From the IMG/VR virus record IMGVR_UViG_3300037156_000089, positions 1 to 57,753 of that record: a stretch of 57,753 nucleotides of DNA; one strand, 5' to 3'. This DNA comes from a virus. Lineage: Duplodnaviria; Caudoviricetes. The translations under genes and the position numbers were made by a program. A model generated the notes under the pieces. The model searched no databases and was not told where the DNA came from. It was given only the letters and a program-made list of their open reading frames with translations. This document shows, in pieces, positions 37,104 to 57,753 of this stretch (its first letter is position 1; the number at the start of each line of letters is the position of its first letter).

Positions 37104-38609
37104 ATGCTCGTTCCCCTGACAGGCGGCGCGTATCAAAATCGCAGCCTGCTCCCGAACGCGCAGCGTCAGGTCAATCTGTATTCCGAGAACAATCCTCAGA
37201 ACTCGCAGGCTCCGACCCCCGTCACGACCTATCTCACACCGGGGCTGCGGCTGCTTGTGACCGCGCCGAATATCGAGGGATACCGGGCGACCTATCGCGC
37301 GTCGAACGGCGATCTTTACGTCTGCGTCGGGTCTCAGGTCTATTACGTCAACCCGTCGTTTGTGTTCTCGCTTCTCGGTGTGATCCCGGACAATACAACG
37401 CCGGTTTCGTTCTCGGACAATGGAATCGTGATGGTTCTGGTCGATGGGACCGGCACCGGATATTGCGTCGATATCACGCCAACCTCGATCAGCGGCCTTC
37501 CTGTCCCCAGGACGTGGGGTGCCATCGCAGATCCGAACTTCCTCGGGTCGAACTTCGTCGACTACATCGACACCTATTTCGTCTTTAATCAGCCGGGAAC
37601 GTCGAACCTCTATATCTCGCTGTCCGAAGTCTCCTTCCAGATGCTCACGCAATCGAGCATCGGAACTGGGGTGATTTCCAGCGCAGGTTCGAGCTACACG
37701 AACGGCACCTATTACGGCGTCCCAATGAGCGGTGGGACCGGCATTGGAGCCATGGCGACGATCACTGTAGCAGGGGCTGCTGTGACCGGCGTCACGATCG
37801 ACAATCCGGGGCAAGGGTTTGCGGCCGGGCAAGTGCTCACGGTTGCAGCCTCTCATATGGGGGGCTCGGGCACCGGATTCACCTATACGATCTCGACCAT
37901 GGCTCCGGCATTCGATCCGCTCGACATTGCCGGGAAGACGGGCTCCCCGGACGCCATCCAGCGCGTGATCGTCGTTTATCGGACGGTCTGGCCGATTGGC
38001 ACGCTAACGACTGAGGGATGGATTGATTCCGGCGCTGCGGACTTCGCATTGCAGCCGCTGCCGGGTGTGTTCATCGAGCATGGGTGTGCGGCGCCGTTCT
38101 CTGTCGCAGCGCATGACCGATCGGCCTATTGGCTGTCCATGGACAGGCAGGGAACGGCCATCGTCATCAAGATCAAGGGCTATGGCGCTGAGCGCGTCTC
38201 GACGCACGCCATAGAGTCCATCTTTCAGAAATACGCTAATATCTCGGACGCGATCGGGTTCACGTTCCAGCAAAAAGGCCACGTCTTTTACGTCATTACG
38301 TTCCCCAGCGCGAACGCAACATGGGGCATGGATATCGAGACTGGCGACTGGTTCCAATGGGCCTTCACTGACGATAACGGAAACCTGAATCGGCATCGGG
38401 CGAACTGCGGCTGCTTCGCCTATGGGCTGAATATCGTCGGGGATTGGCAGAACGGCAATCTCTACGCGCTCGACCCCGGCGTCTACACCGATAACGGCCA
38501 CCCCATCACGCGCATCCGCACCTTTCCGCATCTTCGCGAAGATGGCTCGCGCGTGACCTATACGAGCCTCATCGCCGATCTTCAGTCAGGGCTTGAAACG
38601 CCCGCCTGA
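37104..38609 (+). CDS. Tail hub / packaged-DNA stabilisation protein, P22 gp10-like, lacking its normal C-terminus
   Basis: QVNLY..TPGL; IDTYFVFNQPGT; IEHGCAAPFSV; RVSTHAIE; FQQKGHVFY; HRANC; VGDWQNGNLY; stops after LIADLQSG. Confidence 0.88.
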   Translation: MLVPLTGGAYQNRSLLPNAQRQVNLYSENNPQNSQAPTPVTTYLTPGLRLLVTAPNIEGYRATYRASNGDLYVCVGSQVYYVNPSFVFSLLGVIPDNTTPVSFSDNGIVMVLVDGTGTGYCVDITPTSISGLPVPRTWGAIADPNFLGSNFVDYIDTYFVFNQPGTSNLYISLSEVSFQMLTQSSIGTGVISSAGSSYTNGTYYGVPMSGGTGIGAMATITVAGAAVTGVTIDNPGQGFAAGQVLTVAASHMGGSGTGFTYTISTMAPAFDPLDIAGKTGSPDAIQRVIVVYRTVWPIGTLTTEGWIDSGAADFALQPLPGVFIEHGCAAPFSVAAHDRSAYWLSMDRQGTAIVIKIKGYGAERVSTHAIESIFQKYANISDAIGFTFQQKGHVFYVITFPSANATWGMDIETGDWFQWAFTDDNGNLNRHRANCGCFAYGLNIVGDWQNGNLYALDPGVYTDNGHPITRIRTFPHLREDGSRVTYTSLIADLQSGLETPA

Positions 38610-41145: not shown

Positions 41146-41147
41146 TC

Positions 41148-41345: not shown

Positions 41346-41358
41346 GGGGTCGAAGAGA

Positions 41359-42356: not shown

Positions 42357-42357
42357 A

Positions 42358-43071: not shown

Positions 43072-44408
43072 TGCCGATCGATGTCTCGATGTACAATCAA
43101 GAGCCCGTCGACCCCATGGCGGCCATTGGCAAGACCGTGGGTGTGGCGAACCAGCTGACCCAGAACCGAATCCTTGGCACGCAAAGCGAGCGGGCACAGG
43201 CCGAACTCGCAGCGGATCAAGCAGTCGGCTCGGCTGCGCAGAACAACATGCTTGCAAACGGGACTCTCAACCAAGCGGGATTTGGTGCGGCCGTCGCGGC
43301 AGACCCGCGCGCCGGGATGCGCGCCCTTTCCGCACTTCAGACGGGCGGTACCGTTCAGGGCCAGAGCCTTTCCAATCAGGGCACGGGCGTCGTTCAGGCG
43401 CAGCAGCGGCAGGATAATTTCGCAGCCAAAGTCGGCGCGCTCGGGCCGAACCCCACTCGTCAGGACGTGTTGAAAGTCGCTTCGGACATGCTCCATCAGG
43501 GGCAGCTTATCCCAGACGATACGCCGGGCATCCTCGGCGAGATCCCGATGAAACCGGCTGATGTCGCAGATTATGCCCGGCGGAAGGTTATGGCCGCCCA
43601 CTCGGCGCAACAGCAGACAGCGCAGACACCGGCTGGCGTCGGACCTGACGGGGCCCCATTGCAAGCTCCCCTGGCAACTGTTGTGAGGCAGCAGGCAGCG
43701 GCGCCGAGCGGTGCTATCCCGTCTGCGCTCCCGCCCGGCCAAGGCGACGTCATGGCTAACGATGAGAAGTCCTATCAGGCAGACCAGCAGGGGGCGGCGT
43801 CGATTATGAAGAATGCACGCCCACTTCAAGCGGCGCTCCCTCTCATCGAGCGGTTGAACAACCATTCATTCGGCCCGGGATCCAAACAGTTCAACAAGAT
43901 CAAAGGCGCGCTTCAATTCGCAGGCATCATCCCTCCCGGAACCACAGACACAGAAGTCCGGCAGGAGGCGAACAAATATTTCCACAACTATGCGGCAAGC
44001 ACGGGAGGCGCTGGGCGTTCAGATCAGGCCCTTTCCCAAGCGGCAATATCGAACCCGAGCATGGAGCTGACGCAGGGCGCAAACCTTGACCTCATCAAGA
44101 GTCAGATTGGCCGCGATCGTATGGACGCCTCTCTTGCGAGCGCGTTCAAGGCTCAGAACCCCAACGTGAAGGGTGGCGCCGGCTACTCTGACTTCAAGAG
44201 TCGATTTTACCAGCAAAATGACCCGAGGGCGTTCAGCTACGATTTGCTGGATCCGGCGGGAAAGCAGAAGGTCCTGAATAGCATCGGGAAGCCGGGATCG
44301 GATGCGTACAATAAATTCGGGCGGTCGCTCAAACTCGCGCACGAGGCTGGCATGTTGCAGATGCCGCCGCCGCCATCAGCAACGACGCCCCCAGCAGGAG
44401 CTCAATAA
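43071..44408 (+). CDS. DNA ejection protein, gp20 position
   Basis: Gln/Ala-rich helical protein in the ejectosome cluster. Confidence 0.65.
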   Translation: MPIDVSMYNQEPVDPMAAIGKTVGVANQLTQNRILGTQSERAQAELAADQAVGSAAQNNMLANGTLNQAGFGAAVAADPRAGMRALSALQTGGTVQGQSLSNQGTGVVQAQQRQDNFAAKVGALGPNPTRQDVLKVASDMLHQGQLIPDDTPGILGEIPMKPADVADYARRKVMAAHSAQQQTAQTPAGVGPDGAPLQAPLATVVRQQAAAPSGAIPSALPPGQGDVMANDEKSYQADQQGAASIMKNARPLQAALPLIERLNNHSFGPGSKQFNKIKGALQFAGIIPPGTTDTEVRQEANKYFHNYAASTGGAGRSDQALSQAAISNPSMELTQGANLDLIKSQIGRDRMDASLASAFKAQNPNVKGGAGYSDFKSRFYQQNDPRAFSYDLLDPAGKQKVLNSIGKPGSDAYNKFGRSLKLAHEAGMLQMPPPPSATTPPAGAQ

Positions 44409-45026
44409 ATGGCCGGTAACAGACTTGCGGGCTCCGGCCCGACGATGCCGGGCGATGGCGGGGATGGGCCTTCGGCCGGATTGTCCGGGACGATGGGCGC
44501 AACGCCACAGGCGGCCCCACAGGCGGCCCCGAACATGCTCAGCGGCGCGCAGCCCCAACAGCAACAGCAAGGCCAGCCACAGGCCGCACAGGGCCAGCCT
44601 GGCGCCCCGCTCGTTCCCCCGTCCCACGCGACGCTGATCGACGTCTTCCATCGCGGGTCATACGTGGTCTCGGCGCTCAAGCAACTGCTCAGCAAGCCCG
44701 ACCTGAAGACGAAGGACATCCTCGACACAGTTGGTGAGATCGTCGCCGATCAGGTCATGTCGCCCTTCGATGCCGCCAAATATCTGGCCGACATGCCGAC
44801 GCAGGCCGATCCGCTTCAGCTCCGCCAATGGGTCGGGCAGCATTACGCTAATTCGGCGAAGAACCTTCAGACGGTGGCTGAAATGCTGCACGCGCATGGA
44901 GCGATGACGCGCCGCATGGCGCAGCAGCCCCCGCAAATGATGCCCCCGGACGCCTCGCCCCAGATGCCGCCCCCAGATCAATCGGGCGGAAACCTCCTGT
45001 CTCAGACAACGCAGAGCGTGCACTGA
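44409..45026 (+). CDS. Hypothetical virion/ejection-cluster protein
   Basis: AGGAG RBS; Q/P-rich ends. Confidence 0.6.
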   Translation: MAGNRLAGSGPTMPGDGGDGPSAGLSGTMGATPQAAPQAAPNMLSGAQPQQQQQGQPQAAQGQPGAPLVPPSHATLIDVFHRGSYVVSALKQLLSKPDLKTKDILDTVGEIVADQVMSPFDAAKYLADMPTQADPLQLRQWVGQHYANSAKNLQTVAEMLHAHGAMTRRMAQQPPQMMPPDASPQMPPPDQSGGNLLSQTTQSVH

Positions 45027-47659
45027 TGCAAGACGACACCCAGCCTTCCGTCGCGATCAGCCCGGCTGACCGAGACATCGCGATCCGGACCATGATCGGC
45101 GAAGAAAGTACGCCCCATGGGCAGGCTGGGGTTGCCTCGACCATGCTCAATCGCGCGACGAGCGGGAAATACGGCGGCAAGTCACTGTCTGACGTGGCGT
45201 TCGCGCCCGGGCAGTTCGAGCCTTGGTCCTCTCGCGCCGCGGATCTGCTCAAGATCAGCCCGGACGATCCGAAATATCAGCGCGCGGGCGCGATCCTCGA
45301 CGGCGTTTCGTCGGGCGAGATCCCCGATTTTACCGGCGGCTCAACCCATTTCTATTCCCCCGGGTCGCAGGCTGCTTTGGGTCGGAATGCTCCCAATTGG
45401 GCGAGCGGGCAGGGCACGCCATTGGGGAAGACGATGTTCTACGCCCCAGAGGGTCCTGTGAGCTATAAACCGGCGGCAAAGGCGATTGCGGCGGCGACCA
45501 CGGCACCGGTGGCAGACCCGTACGCCGGACTGATCGCGCAATATACGCAGCCGACTGCTCAGGCTGATCCGTATGCTGATCTGATCAAGCAATACACCGG
45601 TGCGCCGGAAGCATCCGGCGCTGGACCGTCGGCAGCGCCGACCGCGGCCGCAGCATCAGCCGCCGTAGACCCGTACGGCGACCTAATTCGGCAGTACACC
45701 GGCACACCGGATGCCGCGCCAGCCGCGCCCACCGCTCCCGCGACGCCCATCGGCGTCAACGATTCCGTGCGCGCCATTGCGCGAGGCGTGCCGATCATCG
45801 GCGGCGCCCTAAATAAGATCGATGCGGCGACAAACGCAGCTCTCGCGCCTATCGCAAACCGGTTCTTCGATCCGCAGGACCAGTTGAAAGGCGAAACCTT
45901 TGGCGAACGCTACGCAAATTCGCTCGAGCAACAGAACCAGGGGGACAAAGCATTCGGCGAACAGCACCAGATAGCTGACAACGTGCTTGGCGCGGTCGGC
46001 GCTGTCGGCGGGACTGTACCGATGATGATGGCAGCCCCCGGCGCCTTTGGCGTTGGCTCAGGCAACCTGCTTGCGCGCTCTGTCGCCAGTGCGGCCTCCG
46101 GGGGCGTTATCGGCGGGGCTGACGCAGGTGTTCGCTCCGGCGGTGATCTGGATGCGGTGAAGAGCGGCGCTGAGGTAGGGCTGGCGTTTGGCGGCATTGC
46201 TCCTGCAATTGGATCGGCCGTCGGCGCGGGCATCAACAAGCTCACAAACTTCGCTACCCGCACCACGCCCGCTGCGCGCAATGTCGCCGGTGTCCTATCC
46301 GATATCGGCATGACGCCGCAGCAGGCGGATAACGCCCTCTCTCGGATTGGTCCGCAGGCGGTTTTAGCTGATATCGATCCGGCTTTGACCACAGAGGCCG
46401 GAGGCCTCGCGTCTCTCGGCGGAGCGCCTACGTCGGTCCTCAAGAAAGCTATGGCTGCGCGCGGGGCGGGAGCAGACAACCGAGTGGCGCAGGCGGTCGA
46501 TCAATCGCTCGGCCCGAAGCCAGACCTCACAGCAGCCGTGGAAGCCATCGAAAAGGACGCCGCGACTCGCGCTGGGCCGCATTATAACGCTGGCCGGAAC
46601 GGTGCGCCCATGGACGTAACCGGCGTGCTCGCCGACATCGACTCGCGGCTACCGAATGCCACGGGCGGGGCTGAGAGCGTCCTGAACAAGATCAAGGGCT
46701 TCCTGACGGACAAGGTCGCCAGTGGGGCCAATCCGACCGGCCTCGACGTCCCCAAGAGCGACCCCGGCGCGATCCATGCCGCCCGGCAGGCGCTTGACGA
46801 CATGATTGAAAAAATGCCGCTCGATACGTCCGCCGGCAAGAACGCATATCGGGTGGCGAATGATCTTCGTAACAAACTAGATACGGTCGTGAAGGGAAAT
46901 CCGGACTTCGCGGCGGGCGACGCCATCTATGCGCAATCGATGGGGATTCGAGATGCGATGCAGGAAGGCGTTGACGCATTCAAAAAGGCTGTCCGCCCCG
47001 AGGATATGGCGCGCACGATTGCATCAATGAGCCCAGAGCAGGCTGCAGCCTACCGTCAAGGGGCGCGCGTTACGATCGGCGACACGATGGAGGGCGCCCA
47101 GCGCGGTGAGCACGCTGGCGCGCAAAGCATGTTTGGGCGGGGCTCTGCGAACAGGGCGAAGCTCGACACGCTCTTCCCGAAAGCCGGCGATGTTTTCGAC
47201 ATGCTGCACGGCGAGGCGTCTATGCGCACGACGGAGCAGCGCGTGGCCCTCAATTCCGCGACCGCAGAGCGTCAGGCCGTCCAGCAAAAATATTCGCCCT
47301 CGTCAGAGCAAGGCATGAGTGCGGCTGTCCCGGTGCTGGGTCAGGCTATGGGCGGCGGGTATGGTGCAGCGGCGGCCACCGGCGGTCGGATGTTATATGG
47401 TGCCCTGCATGATGCCTTTACGACAGCGGCTCGGAACAAGCTGACCGAGGGAACGGCGCGCGGTCTGGCGGCATCGGGGCCGGAACAACGTGCGTTCATG
47501 GCCCAAATCGGCAGGGCAGCAAACTCGCAGCGGGTATCGAACGCGCTTACGGGCGGGGTCTCATCGGCCGCGAATGCCCTCACGAGATCAGGGGCTCAGG
47601 AATATAATAATCAGGTCATCCCGACGCTGACCGTCAACCGCCTATCGGGGGCTCAATAA
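45026..47659 (+). CDS. Large ejection protein (gp16 position) with N-terminal SleB/Hydrolase_2 cell-wall hydrolase
   Basis: IRTMIGEE..GQAGVA..LNR..QFEPW..DFTGGSTHFY; three DPYxxLIxQYT repeats. Confidence 0.8.
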   Translation: MQDDTQPSVAISPADRDIAIRTMIGEESTPHGQAGVASTMLNRATSGKYGGKSLSDVAFAPGQFEPWSSRAADLLKISPDDPKYQRAGAILDGVSSGEIPDFTGGSTHFYSPGSQAALGRNAPNWASGQGTPLGKTMFYAPEGPVSYKPAAKAIAAATTAPVADPYAGLIAQYTQPTAQADPYADLIKQYTGAPEASGAGPSAAPTAAAASAAVDPYGDLIRQYTGTPDAAPAAPTAPATPIGVNDSVRAIARGVPIIGGALNKIDAATNAALAPIANRFFDPQDQLKGETFGERYANSLEQQNQGDKAFGEQHQIADNVLGAVGAVGGTVPMMMAAPGAFGVGSGNLLARSVASAASGGVIGGADAGVRSGGDLDAVKSGAEVGLAFGGIAPAIGSAVGAGINKLTNFATRTTPAARNVAGVLSDIGMTPQQADNALSRIGPQAVLADIDPALTTEAGGLASLGGAPTSVLKKAMAARGAGADNRVAQAVDQSLGPKPDLTAAVEAIEKDAATRAGPHYNAGRNGAPMDVTGVLADIDSRLPNATGGAESVLNKIKGFLTDKVASGANPTGLDVPKSDPGAIHAARQALDDMIEKMPLDTSAGKNAYRVANDLRNKLDTVVKGNPDFAAGDAIYAQSMGIRDAMQEGVDAFKKAVRPEDMARTIASMSPEQAAAYRQGARVTIGDTMEGAQRGEHAGAQSMFGRGSANRAKLDTLFPKAGDVFDMLHGEASMRTTEQRVALNSATAERQAVQQKYSPSSEQGMSAAVPVLGQAMGGGYGAAAATGGRMLYGALHDAFTTAARNKLTEGTARGLAASGPEQRAFMAQIGRAANSQRVSNALTGGVSSAANALTRSGAQEYNNQVIPTLTVNRLSGAQ

Positions 47660-47829
47660 CCGGATCTTTCCGCTTTCTGGCCAGCCCACAATACCAGAAG
47701 TGTCAACACGACGCCGAGGGCGAACCCATCGCCGAATTGGCTGCTAATCCCAGTAACGAGGTACCGGACACAATAATAGACCCCGACCATAACAACTGTG
47801 CCGAGCGTGTAGGTGATAAGCTTTCTCAT
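47653..47829 (-). CDS. 58-aa two-TM membrane protein (not in ORF track), possible superinfection exclusion
   Basis: MRKLITYTLGTVVMVGVYYCVRYLVTGISSQFGDGFALGVVLTLLVLWAG; convergent with the ejection gene. Confidence 0.5.
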   Translation of the reverse strand: MRKLITYTLGTVVMVGVYYCVRYLVTGISSQFGDGFALGVVLTLLVLWAGQKAERSGY

Positions 47830-47912
47830 ATTCTCGGCACTTTCTTCGGACTAATCAGGGTATGGTTAAGCGGAGAAATCGGTTTTGTTGGAGCGGTCAC
47901 TTGGTCTCCTGC

Positions 47913-48374
47913 TCATTTCTCTGAAGATGTGCATTTCCCTGTATTTAAATCCATTCCGTACTGCCCGAGATTTGTAGTCCAGATTTTTTTATAATCTCCA
48001 CTTAGCTTATTTATTATGATAGTAATTGTGTAAATAGCATTATTACCGTCGTCATTTAACGATGCTTTTTCAGCATGCGCTATGGTCGCAAATTTATTGT
48101 TGGTGGTAATTTTGTATGTGGCTGGATAAAATGGGGTTCCTAAGTACTTATGAACTAAGTCAAGTACAGGCTCCTTCTGTCCAGGAACTGGATCTGCCGC
48201 GCCTTTGGCCTCATCTTTAAGGAATGCGCCATCAACAAGGTACTGATCGATTGTTATGTCGTTGGTCGGCTGACCGGAGGAGTGAGCGCAATACCAGCGC
48301 GTGCTTTCAAGGCCTAGCGCGGGCGACCCAGCCAGCAACCCGCACGCCATCACAACCACTGCAATTTTCTTCAT
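47913..48374 (-). CDS. Exported low-GC moron protein
   Basis: GGAGG RBS; MKKIAVVVMACGLLAGSPALG signal; terminal Cys pair; AT-rich. Confidence 0.7.
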   Translation of the reverse strand: MKKIAVVVMACGLLAGSPALGLESTRWYCAHSSGQPTNDITIDQYLVDGAFLKDEAKGAADPVPGQKEPVLDLVHKYLGTPFYPATYKITTNNKFATIAHAEKASLNDDGNNAIYTITIIINKLSGDYKKIWTTNLGQYGMDLNTGKCTSSEK

Positions 48375-48439
48375 TCCCGCCTCCCCAGACTTTAGGGGAG
48401 GGAGCATAGCTGAACTTAACTGAGAGAGGATAGCCCCGC

Positions 48440-48730
48440 ATGGAACAGGGAAAAAAGCCCAGAACGTCAAAAAGCGTGGTGCCTTACGTCCTCACCCTCA
48501 TCGAATGGGTTGATGCGAGTCGTCTGAGCGACGGCTGGATGGACTTAAGCAGCATCCCCGATCCGTATGCGCACAAGTGCGTTACGGTCGGGTTTGTCGT
48601 CGCTGAGAACGATTTTGCGAAGGTATTGGTCCCGACCATCGGGGACACAGAGCACACCGGCAATAGTCATACGTACGGAGGAATGATGATTCCCCGGTCC
48701 GCGATCATTCAAGAGAGGGTTCTTCGCTAG
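48440..48730 (+). CDS. Small conserved phage protein (VxWxDA..GF..IP family)
   Basis: LIEWVDAS..GW..CVTVGFV..IPRSAI; GAGG RBS. Confidence 0.65.
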   Translation: MEQGKKPRTSKSVVPYVLTLIEWVDASRLSDGWMDLSSIPDPYAHKCVTVGFVVAENDFAKVLVPTIGDTEHTGNSHTYGGMMIPRSAIIQERVLR

Positions 48731-48736
48731 AGGCGC

Positions 48737-48898
48737 TTACCTCTTTTTCGACTTACCCTTGTCGGCCACCCCTTGCCGGGCTGCTACTGAGGCGTCTGCC
48801 ATTGTCCGTCCACCGGATGAATGGCCTCCGCGAAGCTCTTTGCTTCCGTCAGTGGTCTCTTTCTTGGTCGGAGGCTTGATTATCTCTTTCTTGGCCAT
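48737..48898 (-). CDS. Small basic hypothetical protein
   Basis: MAKKEIIKPP..ASKELRGGH-like; GAGG upstream. Confidence 0.4.
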   Translation of the reverse strand: MAKKEIIKPPTKKETTDGSKELRGGHSSGGRTMADASVAARQGVADKGKSKKR

Positions 48899-49000
48899 TT
48901 CCGCGATCCTCAGGGCAGAGCCAGAATCAGCTCTGCGTTGATGATACATGGTTGTTTCGGAAAGCAAGCGACGTGGGCGGGAGTCGAATCTGGGTCCGGG

Positions 49001-49186
49001 TCAGCCCTTCAGTGCTTTCTCAAGAATGCGCCGAATGGCTTCTGAGCGTGAAGGTTTTGGATCGGGCTGTGCTGAAATCCAAGCGTCGAGTCGATCCAAG
49101 AGACGTCGATGAATGCGCGCACGAACCTCCTCGGTGTCTACCGGGGGGCGGCCTCGTGTCGATTTCTTGCGCGCATCAATTGACAT
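49001..49186 (-). CDS. RHH DNA-binding protein, paralogue of 296-484
   Basis: RGRPPVDTEEVRARIHRRLLDRLDAWISAQPDPKPSRSEAIRRILE. Confidence 0.8.
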   Translation of the reverse strand: MSIDARKKSTRGRPPVDTEEVRARIHRRLLDRLDAWISAQPDPKPSRSEAIRRILEKALKG

Positions 49187-49211
49187 GGCGATTTTATACG
49201 CGCATAAAAGA

Positions 49212-49277
49212 CGGGCCGCAAGCGATTTGCGAGATCGCAGGCGGCCCTGACCACCGAACGCTTAACAGGAGCGCCCC
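49212..49277 (+). promoter_or_regulatory. Structured leader, copy 2 of 3
   Basis: Near-identical to 510-577. Confidence 0.7.
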
Positions 49278-49703
49278 ATGGCTAATTCCGCGAATACCAC
49301 GAATCTGTCCCGCCGTCTCATGCTGCTGCGCACGGGCGGGGCGCTTGCCGCCACCGCCGTTCTTCCAGCCGTTGCTCTGGCGACCATGCAGCCCGCATCC
49401 GCACAAGCCGTCATGGCGACGGGCATCGACCCTGTTCTGAAAGCCATCGGTGTATATTGGGACGCGCGCGACGGCATGAACGCCATTGCGGATCCTTATG
49501 ATGACGATGCCATCGATGCAGCCGCCGACCGTCTTATGGAAGCAAGGAGAGGCATTCTCTACGCGCTTCCGACAACTCAGGCCGGAGCCGTCCAGTTGGC
49601 GCGCTTCACGGCGAACGAAGCCAGTAAGGAAGACCGAGATCTGGGCATAGCGATCGATACGATCTGCGCTTTTCTCGTCAACACCGTTGGGACGAGTGTC
49701 TGA
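49278..49703 (+). CDS. Hypothetical protein with twin-arginine-like N-terminus
   Basis: MANS..LSRRLMLLRTGGALAATAVLPAVALA; IDPVLKAI; PTTQAG. Confidence 0.7.
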   Translation: MANSANTTNLSRRLMLLRTGGALAATAVLPAVALATMQPASAQAVMATGIDPVLKAIGVYWDARDGMNAIADPYDDDAIDAAADRLMEARRGILYALPTTQAGAVQLARFTANEASKEDRDLGIAIDTICAFLVNTVGTSV

Positions 49704-49936
49704 TCTCACCTTTTCACGAATTCCCCGCTGCCATGGGGATGAGCGCGCCAAGCTCCCGCTTGTAAAGCCGGGCAACACCTAGCAACGCTGTATTTCTGAA
49801 TTCAGTTTCGCGCTTCGGCGCGGAGGCTCGTGCTTCTACCACGAGCGGACGGGGGAGCCTGAGCTTGCAGGCAGTAGAGCTCCCCCGTCCTTCATCCACG
49901 GCCGCGTAGAAGACGGCCATGGACTAGGTCAAGCAG

Positions 49937-50650
49937 ATGACCAATAATGATCTTTCTACAGTCCCCCTCACCATGTCGAGTCTGGAAATCGCGGGCTTAG
50001 CGGTGAAGCGGCATGACCATGTCATCCGCGACATAAAGAAAATGCTCTCTGATCTAGAAATCACTTCTCCCCAAATTTGGGGGAAAGTAGCTTCTGACGG
50101 CGGGCGCCCACTAGATGTGGCGTATCTCTCAAAGAGAGAGACCTTGATCCTCGTCTCCGGCTATTCGACCGAGCTTCGAGCCCGGATCATCGATCGCTGG
50201 ATGCAGCTCGAGGCCGCGGTCGCTGGGGATGGAGACGGCATTATTACGAAGCTGGACCGCTCCGTGATGAACGACCTCGGCGGCATGATCAAAGGCATCC
50301 TTCACAAGCAGCTTGCCAACGTCGTTCCCGACATGGTGGAAGCTGAGATCGCGAAGCGGCAGTTCGCAGTCGTGCACGCTGTCACTGCTGGCGAGGTCAT
50401 TGTTATGGCCGGTATCGAGAACCGGAAGGGTTTGAAAGGCTTGGCGAGCGTCATTTCCAAGCACTTGCAGCGGTTCCATGCCGCGCACGCAGTGGCTGTG
50501 AAAATTGCTACTCTCGGCACGCGCTCGGCATATGCCTTCGACCCGGCACTCTGTCGGCAGTGGCTCGCAGAGCAGGGCAAGGATCTGATCTTAAAGCGCA
50601 TCGCAGAGCGTCGTGGGCAGGGCGTACTGAAGCTCGTTCCGCCGAAGTAG
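49937..50650 (+). CDS. rha: Rha-family regulator / antirepressor
   Basis: TMSSLEIAGLAVKRHDHVIRDIKKML; LSKRETLILVSGYSTELRARIIDRWMQLE. Confidence 0.88.
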   Translation: MTNNDLSTVPLTMSSLEIAGLAVKRHDHVIRDIKKMLSDLEITSPQIWGKVASDGGRPLDVAYLSKRETLILVSGYSTELRARIIDRWMQLEAAVAGDGDGIITKLDRSVMNDLGGMIKGILHKQLANVVPDMVEAEIAKRQFAVVHAVTAGEVIVMAGIENRKGLKGLASVISKHLQRFHAAHAVAVKIATLGTRSAYAFDPALCRQWLAEQGKDLILKRIAERRGQGVLKLVPPK

Positions 50651-50694: not shown

Positions 50695-50720
50695 AGGGCG
50701 TCCTTCGGGGCGCCCTTTTC
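50695..50720 (+). terminator. Rho-independent terminator
   Basis: AGGGCGTCC-TTCG-GGGCGCCCT-TTTC. Confidence 0.75.
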
Positions 50721-50733
50721 TTATGGAGCCCAC

Positions 50734-52272
50734 ATGACCACGAACCGCGTTCTAAGCCTGTTCCTGGCGCTTTGCTTCAGCGGCATGGCCCACGCAGCCA
50801 CGCTCCTCCCGCCCGGAGAGATCACGTTCCTTGACAACAATGGCCTGCCGTTGGCCGGTGGCCTAGCTTATTTCTACGTCCCCAACACTTTGACGCCGAA
50901 AAACACCTATAGGGACGGTGCCCAAACGACCCTTAATCAAAACCCCGTGCTGCTGGACGGTTCCGGCCGGGCGATCATTTACGGGGCCGGCACCTATCGC
51001 CAGATCCTGAAGGACTCGACCGGGAACCTCGTTTGGGATCAGACGACAGCAGACACGTCGAGCAACAACTTCTCTTGGGCCGGAATAACTGGCGGGTCCG
51101 CCAATGCCCAGACTGTCACGGCGCCGAACTTCACCATCGGCGATGGCCAGACGATCGGCTTTGTCGCCGGCCTGACGAATACGGGGGCGACGACCCTTAG
51201 CGTCAACGGCGGCACTCCGATCAATCTTGCGAAAGCGACCGCATCCGGCCCGATCAGCCTCAACGGCGGCGAAATCATCCTCGGCAACCAATACGAGGTC
51301 ACATACAGCGCCTCAGCCGGAAACCTTCAGCTCGTATCATTCCCGACCCCGCCGGGCATCGGGCAATCCAGCACGATCGCTTCTGCCTCCACGACCGATC
51401 TCGGCACGATCACATCCCATCTTGCCAACATCAGCGGATCGACGCCGATCACATCATTCGGCGCTTCGGCAAGCACGTCCTCCCCGTTTTATGTCGTGAC
51501 GTTTAGTGGTGCCCTTTCTGTCACCTACAACGCATCGAGCATGATCCTGCCCGGCGGCGGGAACATCACGACTGCATCCGGTGATAGCCTATTCGCTCAA
51601 TATCTTGGTTCTGGAAACTGGCGCGTTCTTTCCTATATGCCCGCGGCCTATCTTAGTGGGTATCCCGGTGAATTGCGGCCCTTCGCGGTGAATGCGTGCC
51701 CGGCGGGCTGGCTCAACGCGGACGGAACGCTCCGGTCTCGCAGCACCTATCCGACGCTGTATGCGGCTCTGGGGACAACCTGGGGCGCTGGGGATAGCTC
51801 CACGACGTTCGGCACGCCCGACACCCGAGGCCAGTTCATGCGCGGATGGGACAACGGGGCAGGGCTCGACGTGACCGTCATATCCGGCGTGACGACGAGC
51901 GGGAGCAATAGCGTCACGGGCCTGACGAGCACCGCAACATTCTACGTCGGGATGCCGATCAGCGGCGCGGGCATTCCGAGCGGGGCGACCCTCTCTTCGA
52001 TCGCGTCCTCAACCTCGGTGACTCTCTCGAGCAACGCGACAGCGAGCGCTACCGTCCCCCTGACATTCACAGGGCGAGCCTTCGCCAGCGCAGAAGATGA
52101 CGACCTCAAGGCGCACTCGCACGGCGGCATTCCCAACGGTTCGCTTGGCGTCAATACCAGTTCTTCCGGGTCTGCCGTTCCGGCGGGAACATCAGGCGGG
52201 ACCACGGCATCGACCGGCGGCGCTGAGACCCGCCCGAAGAACCTCGCGGTCCTCTACTGCCTGAAGACCTGA
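50734..52272 (+). CDS. Tail fibre: signal peptide + head-binding domain + tail-collar domain
   Basis: GGAG RBS; FLDNNGLPLAGG..TP..NPVLLDGSGRA; CPAGWLNADG..SRSTYPTLYAALGTTWG..PDTRGQFMRGWD; ETRPKNLAVLYCLK. Confidence 0.9.
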   Translation: MTTNRVLSLFLALCFSGMAHAATLLPPGEITFLDNNGLPLAGGLAYFYVPNTLTPKNTYRDGAQTTLNQNPVLLDGSGRAIIYGAGTYRQILKDSTGNLVWDQTTADTSSNNFSWAGITGGSANAQTVTAPNFTIGDGQTIGFVAGLTNTGATTLSVNGGTPINLAKATASGPISLNGGEIILGNQYEVTYSASAGNLQLVSFPTPPGIGQSSTIASASTTDLGTITSHLANISGSTPITSFGASASTSSPFYVVTFSGALSVTYNASSMILPGGGNITTASGDSLFAQYLGSGNWRVLSYMPAAYLSGYPGELRPFAVNACPAGWLNADGTLRSRSTYPTLYAALGTTWGAGDSSTTFGTPDTRGQFMRGWDNGAGLDVTVISGVTTSGSNSVTGLTSTATFYVGMPISGAGIPSGATLSSIASSTSVTLSSNATASATVPLTFTGRAFASAEDDDLKAHSHGGIPNGSLGVNTSSSGSAVPAGTSGGTTASTGGAETRPKNLAVLYCLKT

Positions 52273-52314
52273 ATCGCCCCTTCTGAATTCCGCCTCTCAA
52301 CAAAAGGCTACATC

Positions 52315-52986
52315 ATGCGCACCTTCCGAGTTTCCTTGATCGCGGCACTCCTTTTCAGCGCGGGGCCGCTGCTCGCCGCTCCGGCTCCCAATACCTCCGG
52401 CTCCATGGGTGTTTGCGATCAGAGCGCCCCGACGACAAACTGCCTCAAGCCGGGCGCAGATGGCTCAATCAACACGATTCCTCAGATCGGCGGCGCCCCG
52501 GTCACGACATCGAACCCTTTGCCTGTCGGAGCAGGGAACACGGTTTCGGTCTGCGTCACGCCGACGGTGACGGCGAGTAATGCCTATGGGACGAACTATG
52601 TCGTGGGCGGGCTGCTCACGTTCTCCAATGCCTTCACGGCGAAGGGCTCCGGACTTCTTCAGGGTGTCGCCGTCACGATCAAGAAGGTCGAGACATCGGG
52701 ATTCACCTTTGTTCCGTTCACATCGAACCCCTCAAATACAACTTGGACGGATGCTGCGGTGGCGGCCATCAATGCGGCAGATGTTGCGGCGGTGCGCGGC
52801 CCCGTTACGCTCACCAACTATTCCGGGCTTGGGACGCATACGGTCGCCTCTGCGGCGGCTATCGCTGAGGCGCTCGCGCCGGGAGCGACGCTTTACGGCG
52901 TGTTGATCGCGAATGGGGCTCTGACCAACAACTTCGGGTCGACGTCCGACGTTCAGGTCTGCGTTAAAACCCTGCAGGACCAGTGA
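52315..52986 (+). CDS. Signal-peptide beta-rich protein in the fibre cluster
   Basis: MRTFRVSLIAALLFSAGPLLA; VTTSNPLPV; AY..VVGGLLTF; TLYGVL; four Cys. Confidence 0.8.
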   Translation: MRTFRVSLIAALLFSAGPLLAAPAPNTSGSMGVCDQSAPTTNCLKPGADGSINTIPQIGGAPVTTSNPLPVGAGNTVSVCVTPTVTASNAYGTNYVVGGLLTFSNAFTAKGSGLLQGVAVTIKKVETSGFTFVPFTSNPSNTTWTDAAVAAINAADVAAVRGPVTLTNYSGLGTHTVASAAAIAEALAPGATLYGVLIANGALTNNFGSTSDVQVCVKTLQDQ

Positions 52987-52988
52987 TC

Positions 52989-54911
52989 ATGAAGCCCGTG
53001 TCCCGCCTTCTCTCGGCGCTCTGGATCATCGTCTCTGGCCTCATGGCCGGAGGCGTCAATCCGGCGTTCGCGCTCAGCGGCAATAGCCTGTTTGAGACCT
53101 CCGCGCTCAGCCATGTGTCGAGGGATCATTACGATGCGGAAGGCATCGATTGGGCGCGAGATCGTGTTGAGGTCGCGTCTCTCATCGGGCCGCGCCGGGC
53201 GCTGCTAGGCGGGAGTGGGTTCAAGCCCGCCCTCTCCCTGCCGTTCTACCAGATGTCCACCGGCGCGGACCTCTCCTCGCGCGGCGTCACGTACTCCGGC
53301 CCCGGCAACAAGACACAGTATGACAGCACGGGGAAGCTGACGTACGCGCCGAATAACCTGATCCCAAACTCAACATCCTCGACTTGGTGGTCCACCGGCA
53401 AGTCAGCGGGAACCACGGTCACGGGCGGGCAAGTTGACCCTTTTGGCGGGGCACTGGCTTCTCAGCTTACCTTCGGCGCTCAAGGCGATTTTGCGGGCTC
53501 AAATATCGCGACGCTAGCTGCTAGTAACTACATCAACTCACTGTGGGTTCAGGGTAACGCAAGCGGCACGATCCATCTTTTCGACGCATCACATGGTGCA
53601 TGGAATGTCTCAGTTCCAGTAACAACTACTTGGACTAGGGTTGATACCGGTTCGATCTTTATCGCTTCTGGCCGCATTATAGCGATTCAGCGAGGATCTG
53701 GGGATCTTACTCAAGTCAATGTGTATGCCCCCCAACTCGAAGCCGTCACCTACCAGACCACGCCCCGCACCTACGTTGCGACCACCAGCGCAACCTATTA
53801 CGGCCCGAGGTTCGACTACCGCTACAACGCGACAAGTGGCCTGTGGGAAGCCGCTGGCCTGCTGATCGAAGAGGTGCGGACGAACCTTGCGACTTACAGC
53901 GGCGACTATACAAACGCTGCGTGGACCCGGGCCGGCAAAGTCAACGTCACTGCAAATGCTATTCTTGCACCTGACGGTACAACGACAGCCCAAAAGCTAT
54001 CCGCCTCGGTTTCGGCAAGTGACAACTATCAGACCTTCCAAATTGGCAAGACGATAACCAGCGGATCGGCGTATACAGCGTCCGAGTACTTCAAGGCGGC
54101 TGAATACACATTCGGTATTCTCAACATCTATGACGGCACGAACAAGCGCGCATGGTTCAACCTATCGACAGGGACTGTTGCGACAACTGATGCCGGTGTC
54201 ACCGCCACGATCACCTCCGTGGGTGGAGGTTGGTATCGCTGCACGGCTACCGCCACGGCGGGCTCTACCAGCGGCGGCATGTCCATTGAGTTCTCCAACG
54301 CTGACAATGTGTTTACATTCGCGGCGACTGCTGGCTCCGGGGTGTATGCCTACGGGACGCAATACGAACTCGGCTCCTTCGCCACCAGCTATATCCCAGA
54401 TACGTCCGCAGCCGTTACTAGAGCGGCTGACTATGTGAGCATGACGGGGACGGCGTTCTCGAGCTGGTATAATCAGGCGGAAGGAACTTGGGTTGTCGAG
54501 GCGGACTCCGCAAAGCCGAGCGGTGGTTCTGCTGGCGTGTTCGTCGTTAGCGATAATACTGGCAACGAGCGGATGCTAATCTCTCACGATCTGAGCGGCA
54601 CGAACATTGAGTCCATCGTGATCTCAGGGGCTGTGCCACAGGCCGATATTATCTCTGCGGGCTCGACCACGACGGGTTCCGCGTACAAGACGGCGCTCGC
54701 CTACAAGGCAAATGACATCGCGGCGGTTACCGCGGGCGGCACGGTTGGTACTGACACATCTGCCACTATCCCGACCGTGAACCGATTGGACTTCGGGTTC
54801 TATTACCCCGGCCTGTCTAGCTCGAATATCCTCAACGGCCACATCAAGTCCCTCGACTATTACCGCACCCGCCTACCCAACCCCACGCTCGTCACCAAGT
54901 CGACACCATAA
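52989..54911 (+). CDS. Signal-peptide spike/fibre protein with duplicated carbohydrate-binding-like and LamG-like domains
   Basis: PRFDY..GLLIEEVRTNL; SFATSYIP..VTRAAD; WYNQAEGT; LNGHIKSLDYY. Confidence 0.85.
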   Translation: MKPVSRLLSALWIIVSGLMAGGVNPAFALSGNSLFETSALSHVSRDHYDAEGIDWARDRVEVASLIGPRRALLGGSGFKPALSLPFYQMSTGADLSSRGVTYSGPGNKTQYDSTGKLTYAPNNLIPNSTSSTWWSTGKSAGTTVTGGQVDPFGGALASQLTFGAQGDFAGSNIATLAASNYINSLWVQGNASGTIHLFDASHGAWNVSVPVTTTWTRVDTGSIFIASGRIIAIQRGSGDLTQVNVYAPQLEAVTYQTTPRTYVATTSATYYGPRFDYRYNATSGLWEAAGLLIEEVRTNLATYSGDYTNAAWTRAGKVNVTANAILAPDGTTTAQKLSASVSASDNYQTFQIGKTITSGSAYTASEYFKAAEYTFGILNIYDGTNKRAWFNLSTGTVATTDAGVTATITSVGGGWYRCTATATAGSTSGGMSIEFSNADNVFTFAATAGSGVYAYGTQYELGSFATSYIPDTSAAVTRAADYVSMTGTAFSSWYNQAEGTWVVEADSAKPSGGSAGVFVVSDNTGNERMLISHDLSGTNIESIVISGAVPQADIISAGSTTTGSAYKTALAYKANDIAAVTAGGTVGTDTSATIPTVNRLDFGFYYPGLSSSNILNGHIKSLDYYRTRLPNPTLVTKSTP

Positions 54912-54924: not shown

Positions 54925-55302
54925 ATGGATTACGTTCTCAAGTCACCCTCCCAAGCCGCCTTCATGGCCGCAGCGGAACAACTCGGCTACGTCCAGCGCG
55001 ACACGGACGGCACCAACCCGCGCCTCATCGCGCAGGGCATCACGAGTGACGGCGGGGATTACTTCATAAATGTCGTGGGTGATGCTTTCAAGCCCACTGG
55101 CAAGATGCTCATCGGACCGATGGGGCCTTATCCTGAAATGGTGCAGGACCCCGGCTATTGGGTGCGTATCAGGCCCAACAACGGGCGGCCTCTCCCGGAA
55201 CTGCCTGATGGGTTCGAACTGTTCCCGCCCAAGAAGTATCTCGCGGATGGCGTGACGGTCGATACGAGCTATGTGCAGCCGCCCTATGGGGAGATCGCCT
55301 AA
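54925..55302 (+). CDS. Fibre-associated protein / chaperone
   Basis: AGGAGG RBS; G..FKPTG..PGYWVRIR; follows the spike gene. Confidence 0.65.
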   Translation: MDYVLKSPSQAAFMAAAEQLGYVQRDTDGTNPRLIAQGITSDGGDYFINVVGDAFKPTGKMLIGPMGPYPEMVQDPGYWVRIRPNNGRPLPELPDGFELFPPKKYLADGVTVDTSYVQPPYGEIA

Positions 55303-55328: not shown

Positions 55329-55353
55329 AACCCGCCCTCGTGGCGGGTTTTTT
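55329..55353 (+). terminator. Rho-independent terminator
   Basis: AACCCGCC-CTCGT-GGCGGGTT-TTTT. Confidence 0.85.
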
Positions 55354-55367: not shown

Positions 55368-55793
55368 ATGATTAATCTCGATCCATCATCGCTATCCAAG
55401 CTGGTCGGCGTGCACCCCGATCTCATCAAGGTCGTGCACCGAGTGGCTGAACTCTCGACGATCCCATTCTGCGTCGTCTACGGCGTTCGGACGATCGCCG
55501 AGGAAATCGAAGCGATAGATTCGGGCCACTCTTCCCTGAGCGACCCGACGAAATGCCGCCACGTCCCGACGGGCCACCCGCCCTATGGGCACGCTGTCGA
55601 TATCGCTCTCTGGCTCAACGGCCGGCCGTCCTTTCACGACAACGCGCAGATGACGACGTTCATCAAGATCGGCCAGCTTTTCCAGCAAGTCGGCGTCGAG
55701 CTGAAGGTTCCCGGCGGCATCCGCTCTGGCTTCATGTGGAAGACATTCAAGGACTGGGGCCACCACGAGCTCACGGCATGGGCCTATCCCTGA
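55368..55793 (+). CDS. Endolysin, M15 L-Ala-D-Glu peptidase family
   Basis: SLSKLVGVHPDL; GVRT..E; RH..GHAVDI; W..FKDWGHHEL. Confidence 0.88.
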   Translation: MINLDPSSLSKLVGVHPDLIKVVHRVAELSTIPFCVVYGVRTIAEEIEAIDSGHSSLSDPTKCRHVPTGHPPYGHAVDIALWLNGRPSFHDNAQMTTFIKIGQLFQQVGVELKVPGGIRSGFMWKTFKDWGHHELTAWAYP

Positions 55794-55811
55794 CCTTCGG
55801 AGCCATTGGCT

Positions 55812-56444
55812 ATGCGTCATTCTGATCTCGCCGCGCTCGCGCAGCGCGCATACACGGCCACGCCCGAATGGCAATGCGCCGGGCACGTCCGGGCGATGCT
55901 CGACATAGTCGATGGGGTTCCTGTCGTCTCGGTGCCGGGCACGGACCCGATGAGCTTCGCGGACGATTCCCGCGATCTCGATTGCGATCAGGTGTTCGTT
56001 CCGGGCCTCGGCTACTGCCACGACGGGTTCCAGAGCGCGGCCCTTTCGATTTGGCCGATGGTGAAGGAAACGCTCTTCGCCAACGGCAAGCACGCGCCTC
56101 GGATCACATTCACCGGCCACTCGCTCGGCGGCGCAATCGCGGTGATCCTCGCTGCCCTGACGTTACGCGACAAGCTCGCCGATGAGGTGGAACTCGTCAC
56201 GTTCGGATGCCCGCGCGTCGGTGCGCAACGCCTCGCCCTGAGCCTCTTCTCCGCGAAAAAGACGCTGTACCGCTTCGGGATCGATCCGGTGACGCAAGTG
56301 CCGTTCACCTGGCTCTTCCACCTCCCTCCCGTCGTCTACATGCACCCCACAACGATCTCGCGCATAGGCGCGCCGGAACTGCCGCTGATCTGCAATCACG
56401 CAATCAGCAATTACGTGACTGAGCTTCAACGGCTCGGCCTTTAA
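55812..56444 (+). CDS. Class-3 lipase (alpha/beta hydrolase)
   Basis: VSVPGT; CHDGF; FTGHSLGGAIA; TFGCPRVG; DPVTQVP; HAISNY. Confidence 0.9.
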   Translation: MRHSDLAALAQRAYTATPEWQCAGHVRAMLDIVDGVPVVSVPGTDPMSFADDSRDLDCDQVFVPGLGYCHDGFQSAALSIWPMVKETLFANGKHAPRITFTGHSLGGAIAVILAALTLRDKLADEVELVTFGCPRVGAQRLALSLFSAKKTLYRFGIDPVTQVPFTWLFHLPPVVYMHPTTISRIGAPELPLICNHAISNYVTELQRLGL

Positions 56445-56451
56445 AGGAGTA

Positions 56452-57084
56452 ATGACCATGGATGGAACGAAATCTCTGCTCGCGAGCCGGACTTTTTGGG
56501 GTGCCGTCCTCGCGCTTATCGGCATTGTCGCGCCCGCCTTTCACCTGACCGCGCTCGCTTCATGGGCCGGCGCACCCGCGACGCTCGACACCATCCTCCA
56601 GGTTGCGGGCATTGCGGGCGGCCTGCTTGCGATCGTCGGGCGCATCGGTGCAACCAAGACGATCACCCTTCCGACCAGCGCGGGGCCGACCGTTGGTCTC
56701 CTCGCATTTCTGGCAGTCCTGCCGCTCGGCCTCGGCGGATGCGCGAAGGTCGTGGACCAGTTGCAGCAGGGCACGGTCGCATTGACCAATTTCAATAACG
56801 CTCTGATTCAGCTTCAGCTCACGATCCTCGGCAACATGCAGGCGCAGGCCAAGCAGCTTGCGCCGCTCGTCTGCGGCACGATCTCGCTCGGCACCACGAT
56901 TGCCGCCAACCCGGCCGTCGCGGGATCCGTGAATGACTACCTCGGCAAGCACAAGGCCGCAGGGCAGATTATCGCGGTCGCCAGTGAGCTTTGCGCAGTC
57001 GCCGGCCTGCCTGTCACGGTTACGGCGGTCCCTGCGGGGGCAACTGTTCCCGTGCCGGCCGCGCCCCCCGCAGTGGGAGGCTGA
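56452..57084 (+). CDS. Holin-like membrane protein fused to a lipoprotein-like domain
   Basis: TKSLLASRTFWGA..LAIVGRIGATKTI, then LLAFLAVLPLGLGGC lipobox-like segment. Confidence 0.65.
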   Translation: MTMDGTKSLLASRTFWGAVLALIGIVAPAFHLTALASWAGAPATLDTILQVAGIAGGLLAIVGRIGATKTITLPTSAGPTVGLLAFLAVLPLGLGGCAKVVDQLQQGTVALTNFNNALIQLQLTILGNMQAQAKQLAPLVCGTISLGTTIAANPAVAGSVNDYLGKHKAAGQIIAVASELCAVAGLPVTVTAVPAGATVPVPAAPPAVGG

Positions 57085-57484: not shown

Positions 57485-57753
57485 ATGATCGGGGACTTTC
57501 AGGGCACGACAATCACCGTAGGGGCACTACTCCTCATCGCGGGCGCAATATGGGGCGTGGTTCGAACGCTCGATTGGCTAAATGCCAAGTTTACGGCGAA
57601 CGAAGATGCGAGCAAGCAGCTCCTGAAGGAGAAGATCGAAGAGGCGGTTTTACCCATTGCGATCAAACAATCGGCCAGCGAATTAAGGGCTGAGCAGCTA
57701 TCCGAGAAGCTCAAAGATTTCGAGGTCAGCGTAGTTTCGAACTTCGTCTCGAA
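57485..57753 (+). CDS. N-terminal TM + coiled-coil lysis-region protein; continues across the origin to stop at 245
   Basis: MIGDFQGTTITVGALLLIAGAIWGVV.. reads in frame through the repeat to TGA at 243-245. Confidence 0.7.
   Translation, partial: MIGDFQGTTITVGALLLIAGAIWGVVRTLDWLNAKFTANEDASKQLLKEKIEEAVLPIAIKQSASELRAEQLSEKLKDFEVSVVSNFVS
57627..57753. repeat. Terminal direct repeat, copy 2
   Basis: Identical to 1-127. Confidence 0.97.

Follow-up and report, generated by a model that had tools for sequence, protein, structure and literature searches.

Three fibre genes of a P22-like podovirus open with predicted Sec signal peptides, suggesting virion parts that may mature in the periplasm

The stretch of DNA analysed here, referred to as the window, is the virus record IMGVR_UViG_3300037156_000089 of IMG/VR (Duplodnaviria; Caudoviricetes), a complete record of 57,753 bp with a direct terminal repeat of 127 nucleotides (nt). 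Three consecutive open reading frames (ORFs) of its fibre cluster, which start at 50734, 52315 and 52989 and are called ORF A, ORF B and ORF C below, each open with a basic, hydrophobic leader that ends in a small-x-small motif. The features of the fibre transcription unit are listed here, where a slash within a sequence marks a predicted cut and protein lengths are given in amino acids (aa).

50695..50716, plus strand: terminator-like hairpin of 9 pairs, 7 of them G-C, with a T tail, lying 3' of the Rha/Ant-like gene and 5' of ORF A; upstream boundary of the unit
50725-50728, plus strand: ribosome-binding site (RBS) GGAG of ORF A, with a 5-nt spacer before ATG 50734
50734..52272, plus strand: ORF A, a 512-aa tail fibre by Pfam and several tail-fibre PHROGs
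50734..50796, plus strand: leader of ORF A, 21 codons, with n-region MTTNR, h-region VLSLFLALCFSGM and c-region AHA; predicted signal peptidase I cut at AHA/ATLLP
50797..51153, plus strand: mature N-terminal tail-docking ('head-binding') domain, residues 22-140 of ORF A, by a profile match to PDB 7eeq_A
52315..52986, plus strand: ORF B, 223 aa; the model shows a flexible stalk that ends in a jelly-roll knob at the C-terminus (residues 75-221, nt 52537-52977)
52315..52377, plus strand: leader of ORF B, 21 codons, MRTFR followed by VSLIAALLFSAGPLLA; predicted cut after LLA, possibly after APA
52989..54911, plus strand: ORF C, a 640-aa tail protein of phrog_5939 (E 7.7e-65 over residues 273-634)
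52989..53072, plus strand: predicted leader of ORF C, 28 codons, MKPVSR followed by LLSALWIIVSGLMAGG and then VNPAFA/LS
53073..53222, plus strand: N-terminal extension of ORF C, residues 29-78, absent from most family members and poorly modelled (predicted local distance difference test, pLDDT, below 50 over residues 23-76)
54925..55302, plus strand: 125-aa ORF, the last of the unit, without leader and without family
55329..55349, plus strand: second strong terminator-like hairpin, the downstream boundary of the unit

The leaders, starts and N-termini of the three ORFs, and the RBS of the first, had been described in an initial annotation of the window, and a renewed reading of the sequence found all of them exactly as given there. 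The N-terminus of ORF A reads MTTNRVLSLFLALCFSGMAHA/ATLLP. ORF B starts at ATG 52315 with AAGG 7 nt upstream and reads MRTFRVSLIAALLFSAGPLLA/AP, and ORF C starts at ATG 52989 with AGGA at 52976-52979, has GTG 52983 as an alternative start, and reads MKPVSRLLSALWIIVSGLMAGGVNPAFA/LS. A positive n-region followed by a hydrophobic h-region, as in Sec signals, is present in all three. Small residues occupy positions -3 and -1 in ORF A (AHA/A) and ORF C (AFA/L); in ORF B the cut is either LLA/A, with Leu at -3, or APA/P, with Pro at +1.

Signal peptides were called with a rule-based scorer that considers a positive n-region, a hydrophobic core, the -3/-1 rule and the absence of Pro at +1, and that assigned scores of 7.4, 6.4 and 7.6 to ORFs A, B and C. 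The caller was applied to the 83 crudely called ORFs of the window with a threshold of 6.3 at the first start, and only five reached it: ORFs A, B and C, a 161-aa ORF at 26161 and the multi-transmembrane (multi-TM) protein of the lysis cassette at 56452. The plus-strand late ORFs (27730-47659), 19 in number and including the terminase, portal, capsid, adaptor, hub and ejection proteins, yielded no call at the first start, in agreement with the earlier claim that the capsid, portal, adaptor and hub genes lack such leaders. Two late ORFs were called weakly, and only at internal alternative starts (40602/40608, score 6.03; 42054, score 6.53). Given a background of 2 in 80, the chance of three consecutive hits is about 1e-5, a rough figure that assumes independence; chance is ruled out by the family-wide conservation of the leaders described below.

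Other types of N-terminal signal were considered and rejected. For a lipoprotein signal, cut by signal peptidase II, there is no lipobox call in A, B or C, and the +1 residue is Ala in 67 of 81 ORF A homologues. A Tat signal was rejected on the n-regions MTTNR, MRTFR and MKPVSR, which lack an RR pair, and a signal-anchor-release (SAR) domain on the strong cores (Kyte-Doolittle 2.6-2.9 over 8 residues) together with the conserved cleavage motif; the leader of ORF C is the one nearest to a SAR-like composition. A cytoplasmic isoform could in principle start at the internal Met codons M18 of ORF A (ATG 50785), M31 of ORF B (52405) or M19 of ORF C (53043). The first of these had been pointed out initially as a possible start and is indeed there, but it has no purine-rich RBS upstream; likewise no RBS was found at 53043 or 52405. 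As the homologues moreover do not conserve the Met, this reading was dropped.

ORF A carries a Phage Tail Collar domain (PF07484; residues 312-369, nt 51667-51840) with 72.3 bits versus a Pfam gathering cut-off of 24, and no other protein of this genome has the docking domain. The profile of alignment A1 matches PDB chain 7eeq_A, 'Tailspike head-binding domain', with E 6.1e-5. The entry holds 18 copies of the chain and belongs to phage Pam1, as named in the available part of PMC13730344. Chain residues 15-86 align to profile positions 36-103, which puts the first residue of the chain at about residue 22 of ORF A, so that the solved protein starts where cleaved ORF A would start. The leaderless relatives begin at the same point, and the proposal that cleavage exposes the usual N-terminus of a head-binding domain is thereby supported at the level of sequence comparison. 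On these alignments the N-terminal domain of ORF A is best read as a virion-docking module. A PHROG-based scan of the other late ORFs revealed no leaderless receptor-binding candidate.

A first sample of 100 ORF A-family proteins provides the clearest view of the leader. At least 14 residues precede the anchor ATLLP(P/N)GE in 81 of them, 11 start at most 4 residues from the anchor, one is intermediate, and 7 lack the anchor by the pattern used; leaderless relatives typically start M-ATLLP. The cut site was set by the conserved mature end, which allows the cleavage junction to be fixed independently of any predictor. At position -1 (n=81) Ala is found 70 times, Gly 5 times and Ser 4 times, and at position -3 Ala 48, Val 10, Ser 5 and Thr 3 times. 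The residue at -2 varies and is often a bulky one; at -4 there is an enrichment of Pro (27 of 81). A positive n-region and a hydrophobic core are present in 78 of the 81 leaders, which have a median length of 25 residues. The mean pairwise identity is 0.18 for the leader versus 0.62 for the first 15 mature residues; judged by these figures, the leaders of the family are conserved in kind and not in sequence.

A second sample, drawn from an exhaustive search, consisted of the best 150 of 14,862 representatives (clusters at 50% identity with a docking-domain match at E<=0.001), of which 149 were used after one fragment had been dropped. It contains 84 proteins with a leader, 64 without and 1 intermediate. 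Position -1 is Ala, Gly or Ser in 79 of the 84 leader-bearing members and position -3 is Ala, Ser, Val or Thr in 78, and 80 combine a positive n-region with a hydrophobic core. The -3,-1 pattern is the classical rule of signal peptidase I, and as aligned here the junction of the ORF A family displays it. Moreover, removal of the leader yields the same N-terminal Ala that the leaderless relatives obtain by removal of Met. Taken together, the comparisons show the putative leaders to be translated, to be selected for signal-peptide character, and to end in a cleavage motif at the start of the docking domain.

ORF B has no Pfam or PHROG family. Its AlphaFold model (pLDDT 79) matched uncharacterised phage proteins in BFVD (a protein of Caulobacter phage Seuss being the best) and terminal knobs of collagen-like viral fibres, and a Foldseek search against the PDB gave no match at E<=0.001, only generic viral jelly rolls. 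The model of ORF C (pLDDT 74) consists of tandem beta-sandwiches resembling lectins or carbohydrate-binding modules (CBMs). The best PDB matches of ORF C are tail fibre and baseplate chains of the Pseudomonas phages Pa193 and E217, and CBM and laminin-G domains were matched as well. We found 31 relatives of ORF C on viral contigs; a relative from Hyphomicrobiales (P0223) has a leader directly before the conserved N-terminal motif of the family.

The cysteines of the mature proteins provide a second line of evidence. Exported proteins of disulfide-making bacteria tend to have even numbers of Cys. In the first sample the leader-bearing relatives of ORF A have an even number in 65 cases, none in 10 and an odd number in 6, against 2 even, 2 zero and 7 odd for the leaderless ones; in the second sample the counts are 61 even, 16 zero and 7 odd with a leader, and 21 even, 11 zero and 32 odd without. 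Mature ORF A itself has two Cys (322 and 509). ORF B has the four Cys that had been counted initially, at residues 34, 43, 80 and 216. In its family, sampled as the best 120 of 170 matches, the columns of C80 and C216 are both Cys in 61 of 63 leader-like members versus 2 of 57 leaderless ones, where Thr or Val stands at these positions. Cys80 lies in the first and Cys216 in the last strand of the modelled jelly roll, strands that are neighbours in jelly-roll folds. The alignments thus support the view that the mature A and B fibres bear the Cys signature of an oxidising compartment.

The genomic surroundings of the fibre gene were compared over 83 related loci from viral and genome contigs. 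Single-protein searches of these contigs with ORF A yielded no related loci, and the profile of alignment A1 was needed. The docking domain is nearly always accompanied by the same hub and ejection-protein genes. Inspection of the N-termini by eye classified 30 of the 83 loci as leader-bearing on the ORF A homologue; the automatic call differs for a few, and was overridden in favour of a leader for L037 and L064. The same hub lies upstream in 25 of the 30 leader-bearing viral loci, and ejection genes in 2 more. A downstream ORF of at least 150 aa that starts at most 300 nt away is present in 28 loci, 9 of which are leader-bearing, and in these nine it has a leader in 5 cases and is the endolysin in 4. 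One of the five, L046, has a second leader-bearing copy of the same docking domain downstream: two tandem fibre genes (L046:10001-12723) both combine docking domain and leader, and the second reads MRWLAALLFLCALAGHAGA/ASLLPPGK.

A sibling phage retains the leaders on its homologues of ORF B (82% identical) and ORF C (P0222, 79%); one metagenome scan did not retrieve this 79%-identical sibling. The related loci span 40% to 68% G+C. The low-GC relatives L062, L076, L077, L083, L087 and L092 (the last at 40% G+C) have Ile/Phe-rich leaders that end in YAQ(T/N), in the style of Bacteroidota, before a mature end A(S/A)ILPP, and the trait therefore spans very different hosts. From these patterns it appears that leaders have been added to several unrelated receptor-binding families and that they tend to co-occur, with exceptions. 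Such leaders are characteristic of a large group of podovirus fibres, most of it uncultured.

The window as a whole is a complete P22-like podovirus genome, temperate in layout, and the native host probably belongs to the Hyphomicrobiales. PHROG matches identified the portal, a gp4-like adaptor, a gp10-like hub, ejection proteins and, following an antirepressor block, a tailspike gene. The order of ejection genes, immI region with ant, and tailspike gene is that of the P22 map, and ORF A, 3' of the antirepressor block, presumably occupies the P22 tailspike-gene slot. The main genes outside the fibre unit are the following.

27730 (start), plus strand: large terminase, by PHROG
29947 (start), plus strand: portal, by PHROG
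33623 (start), plus strand: major head protein, by PHROG
36357 (start), plus strand: gp4-like adaptor, by PHROG
37104..38609, plus strand: gp10-like tail hub (head closure Hc3), by PHROG; the presumed docking partner of the N-terminal domain of ORF A
42358-47659, plus strand: ejection and internal proteins, by PHROG
55368..57084, plus strand: lysis cassette, by Pfam, PHROG and the leader scan
55368-55793, plus strand: soluble endolysin without leader or SAR domain
55806-56444, plus strand: class-3 lipase
56452-57084, plus strand: multi-TM holin-like protein

Several of these genes have features of their own. The lipase, which sits between the endolysin and the multi-TM protein, matches Pfam Lipase_3 (E 1.4e-17) and phrog_21992 (esterase/lipase), and three further loci (L060, L069, L083) have weak relatives close to their fibre or lysis genes; a role in the disruption of the outer membrane is possible. 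An ORF that crosses the 127-nt terminal repeat (57485-57753 and 1-245) has an N-terminal transmembrane helix and a long helical tail, and may encode an inner-membrane spanin. The 161-aa ORF (26161-26646) just 5' of the packaging genes carries the signal peptide MKKSILALSMFAALVSSTAYA/G (score 7.45) behind a GAGG RBS; no PHROG family was found for its product, which is probably a secreted accessory (moron) protein. An HNH endonuclease with 12 Cys is encoded at 34970-35674, an insertion that separates the major head gene from the connector genes. A 429-aa ORF at 39177-40466 shares only its last ~70 residues with a small gene found 3' of the hub in nearly all relatives, and its first 350 residues (phrog_10080, unknown function) are peculiar to this phage; a tail-needle or plug protein that has gained a further domain is one possibility for the product. 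The immI-like accessory block (47660-50650) between the ejection genes and the fibre gene lies in a lower-GC stretch (0.555 over 48-50 kb). It contains a reverse-strand ORF (47913-48470) in which an internal Met opens a lipoprotein-like leader, MKKIAVVVMACG..., a ribbon-helix-helix ORF on the minus strand (49001-49186) and a Rha/Ant antirepressor (49937-50650).

Considering the conserved cleavage junction, the leaders are probably functional export signals. The pathway that we propose on this basis would run as follows. The three receptor-binding proteins would be made as precursors with cleavable Sec-type signal peptides and cross the inner membrane unfolded. Signal peptidase I would then cut, in ORF A at AHA/ATLLP, and the fibres would fold, trimerise and form disulfides in the periplasm. 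Meanwhile, the leaderless capsid, portal, adaptor, hub and ejection proteins would form fibreless particles in the cytoplasm. The two pools would mix once the holin has opened holes in the inner membrane, or in the lysate, whereupon the mature N-terminal domain of ORF A would dock on the tail hub and ORFs B and C would join as further fibres. The endolysin is soluble and leaderless, which points to a holin that makes large lesions, and such lesions would let the compartments mix. P22 tailspikes bind tailspike-less particles in vitro, and the last assembly step is therefore physically plausible.

The different parts of this proposal do not carry the same weight. From the sequence comparisons we infer that the fibres are actually exported and fold outside the cytoplasm and, one step further removed, when and where they attach to the particle. 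Taken whole, the explanation in which the fibres are Sec precursors that mature in the periplasm and join the particles later is the best available one, and we lean towards it with modest confidence; as for the full pathway, in which the virion fibres are drawn from the exported pool, we regard its being right and its being wrong as evenly balanced. The initial annotation had suggested both export and periplasmic maturation, and three independent kinds of sequence evidence speak well for export and for oxidation in the periplasm. Comparative support comes from leaders that look like signal peptidase I substrates, from the mature N-terminus of ORF A that cleavage would expose, from the absence of leaders on the other virion proteins and from the Cys signature, the last of which does not extend to ORF C: mature ORF C has a single Cys and the disulfide argument is consequently inapplicable to it. 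As possible advantages one may speculate on disulfide-stabilised fibres, on glycan-binding or glycan-cutting proteins being kept away from cytoplasmic precursors, and on action on the cell's own receptors before lysis.

Apart from the single Cys of ORF C, a number of observations weigh against periplasmic maturation followed by late attachment. The leader calls come from our own rule-based scorer together with conservation. Most relatives of ORF C on viral contigs start directly at the conserved motif, without a leader, and the 125-aa ORF at 54925, the final gene of the fibre unit, has no leader either. The isolated-phage records that carry the docking domain number 33, and the five of these that were checked (PBR31, MW202483, P4282, P26218 and PAE2) are all leaderless, which may explain why the leaders went unnoticed. 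The best tree of the A family, built like those of the B family from the conserved domain, has 24 changes of leader state with only 2 contrasts on well-supported branches, and the best trees of the B family have 9-11 changes with only 1. With so few supported contrasts the Cys covariation could reflect few events, and sign tests on the A and B family trees (2 and 1 supported contrasts) had no power. The disulfides could instead form after release into an oxidising medium. Furthermore, post-lysis assembly looks inefficient, and no precedent for such assembly of fibres was found in the literature. Finally, in the 19 loci where a leaderless fibre is followed by a further ORF, this ORF is leaderless in 16 and leader-bearing in 3 (L089, L094 and L108). 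The idea that the leaders are conserved as a set thus holds for this phage, as do the leaders on the B and C homologues of its sibling, and fails in these three loci.

The same three loci bear on the alternative that we take most seriously, although we consider it unlikely: that the exported copies are not virion parts but act in trans from the periplasm or the medium, and that the virion fibres come from an unexported fraction or from internal starts. The trans roles could be the masking or binding of receptor glycans against superinfection, keeping progeny off debris, or that of a free depolymerase or lectin. Receptor blocking had been raised in the initial annotation as a second function of the fibres, and the comparisons speak neither for nor against it. 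A leaderless docking fibre followed by a leader-bearing spike would fit a free enzyme, in particular in L094 (11586-15653), where a 1355-aa spike with exopolysaccharide (EPS)-depolymerase and tailspike PHROG matches and the leader …AAPAAWA/QT lies directly 3' of the leaderless docking fibre. The lectin/CBM-like domains of which ORF C is built and the temperate layout of the phage fit such roles as well. However, the docking domain is strongly conserved in the leader-bearing fibres (0.62 over the first 15 mature residues) and is linked to the hub module, ORF A is the sole protein here that has it, and no leaderless receptor-binding candidate was found among the other late ORFs. The internal Met residues M18 (A), M19 (C) and M31 (B) do exist, but they lack an RBS and are not conserved, and most leaders of the family have no Met near the cut. 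Expression from a lysogen is argued against by the position of the unit between two terminators, within which no promoter-like site was found. It is rather improbable that the hydrophobic N-terminus is retained, either as a membrane tether with SAR-like release or as a structural element that, for example, inserts into the tail. SAR domains are known in phage endolysins, the h-region of ORF C is rich in Gly, Ala and Ser at its end (SGLMAGG), and the best cut site of ORF B has Leu at -3. Yet the -1/-3 pattern falls exactly at the mature junction (79 and 78 of the 84) and, with the Pro at -4, forms a cleavage signature; leaderless relatives function with a free N-terminal Ala; and an N-in anchor would leave the docking domain in the periplasm anyway.

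The two explanations that remain are less credible still. The leader-bearing fibre genes might be becoming, or already be, cellular surface fibres on defective or domesticated elements. The layout of ORF A is the same as that of the Bdellovibrio MAT proteins, which are adhesins of phage origin, as far as these are described in the available part of PMC10769870, and the family is very large, with some members on long bacterial contigs; but the window holds an entire phage genome, terminal repeat included, in which the morphogenesis and lysis genes are fully represented, and a tail or ejection module adjoins the fibre gene in 27 of the 30 leader-bearing viral loci, so that we hold this to be very improbable. 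We give hardly any credence to the leaders being an artefact of mis-called starts or chance hydrophobic N-termini. Some database entries (P0018, P0030, P0038) do have over-extended starts, and the gene and signal callers are crude. Nevertheless, 81 of 100 and 84 of 149 homologues have an open frame that reaches an upstream start, the composition of the leaders is patterned, the mature Ala is preceded by Ala, Gly or Ser and in no case by a start codon, and the best RBS belongs to 50734.

If the leaders work as predicted, a substantial share of one very common docking-fibre family (84 of the 149 closest representatives) would leave the cytoplasm first, which would constitute an unrecognised envelope-dependent step in morphogenesis and would account for a dependence of the fibres on structural disulfides. 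It would have practical consequences: in phage engineering such fibres may misfold when expressed leaderless or in a reducing cytoplasm, and predictions of prophage secretomes would need re-reading. Tailed-phage virions are currently taken to assemble wholly in the cytoplasm, and annotation pipelines and structural-protein predictors count a signal peptide against a virion role. In its widest form the proposal holds that a large and widespread podovirus group obligatorily builds its particles in two compartments, that the fibreless particles in the cytoplasm are already filled with DNA, and that the infectious virion is completed only in the short interval from the triggering of the holin until the outer membrane ruptures, or else in the lysate; we put this forward tentatively, as somewhat less likely than not. 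The group would span hosts from high-GC Alphaproteobacteria to low-GC, Bacteroidota-looking ones. If true, the Sec, LepB and Dsb functions of the host would take part in tailed-phage morphogenesis and be determinants of phage yield, fibres could be shared between co-resident phages, and complementation from outside would be expected.

Regarding known systems, we found no description of tailed-phage virion fibres with Sec leaders in the literature, where our coverage of subscription journals and supplements was incomplete; within that range, the initial statement that no such pathway is known still stands. The nearest relatives of ORF A in architecture are the P22-like tailspikes, including that of PDB 7EEQ. 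Like ORF A they have, at the very N-terminus, a docking domain of ~100 aa, behind which comes a receptor-binding part that varies, their gene follows the ejection genes and an antirepressor block, and the docking domain is linked to a gp10-like hub. In the known tailspikes, however, nothing precedes the docking domain and folding takes place in the cytoplasm, whereas ORF A first has a predicted cleavable leader of 21 residues.

Phage proteins that use Sec are well known and comprise the signal-peptide and SAR endolysins, the spanins and Llp of T5. The antiholin RI of T4 also has a Sec export signal, according to the available part of its description. All of these share phage-encoded N-terminal export signals with the fibres discussed here, and a link of activity to the envelope and the timing of lysis would also be common to both. 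They differ in that their target is the infected cell's own envelope and that none is a structural protein of the virion. Virion proteins with Sec leaders that are assembled outside the cytoplasm exist in the filamentous phages, namely pIII and pVIII. These phages differ from the present one in being non-tailed and in being extruded through the envelope without lysis.

Export is also known for cellular proteins that adopt tail-fibre or tailspike folds, as the available parts of two reports indicate. The Bdellovibrio MAT fibres (PMC10769870) are there described as products of chromosomal genes of the predator that are displayed on a cell or vesicle and not on a virus particle. WceF of Pantoea stewartii (PMC7949094) has, according to the available part, a trimeric tailspike fold and is active beyond the cytoplasm once its N-terminal signal has been removed; in contrast to the fibres discussed here, it is a cellular enzyme encoded in an exopolysaccharide cluster, is exported by Tat in a folded state and lacks a virion-docking domain. 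Set beside these systems, a tail fibre with a Sec leader would represent a new maturation route for a known type of protein.

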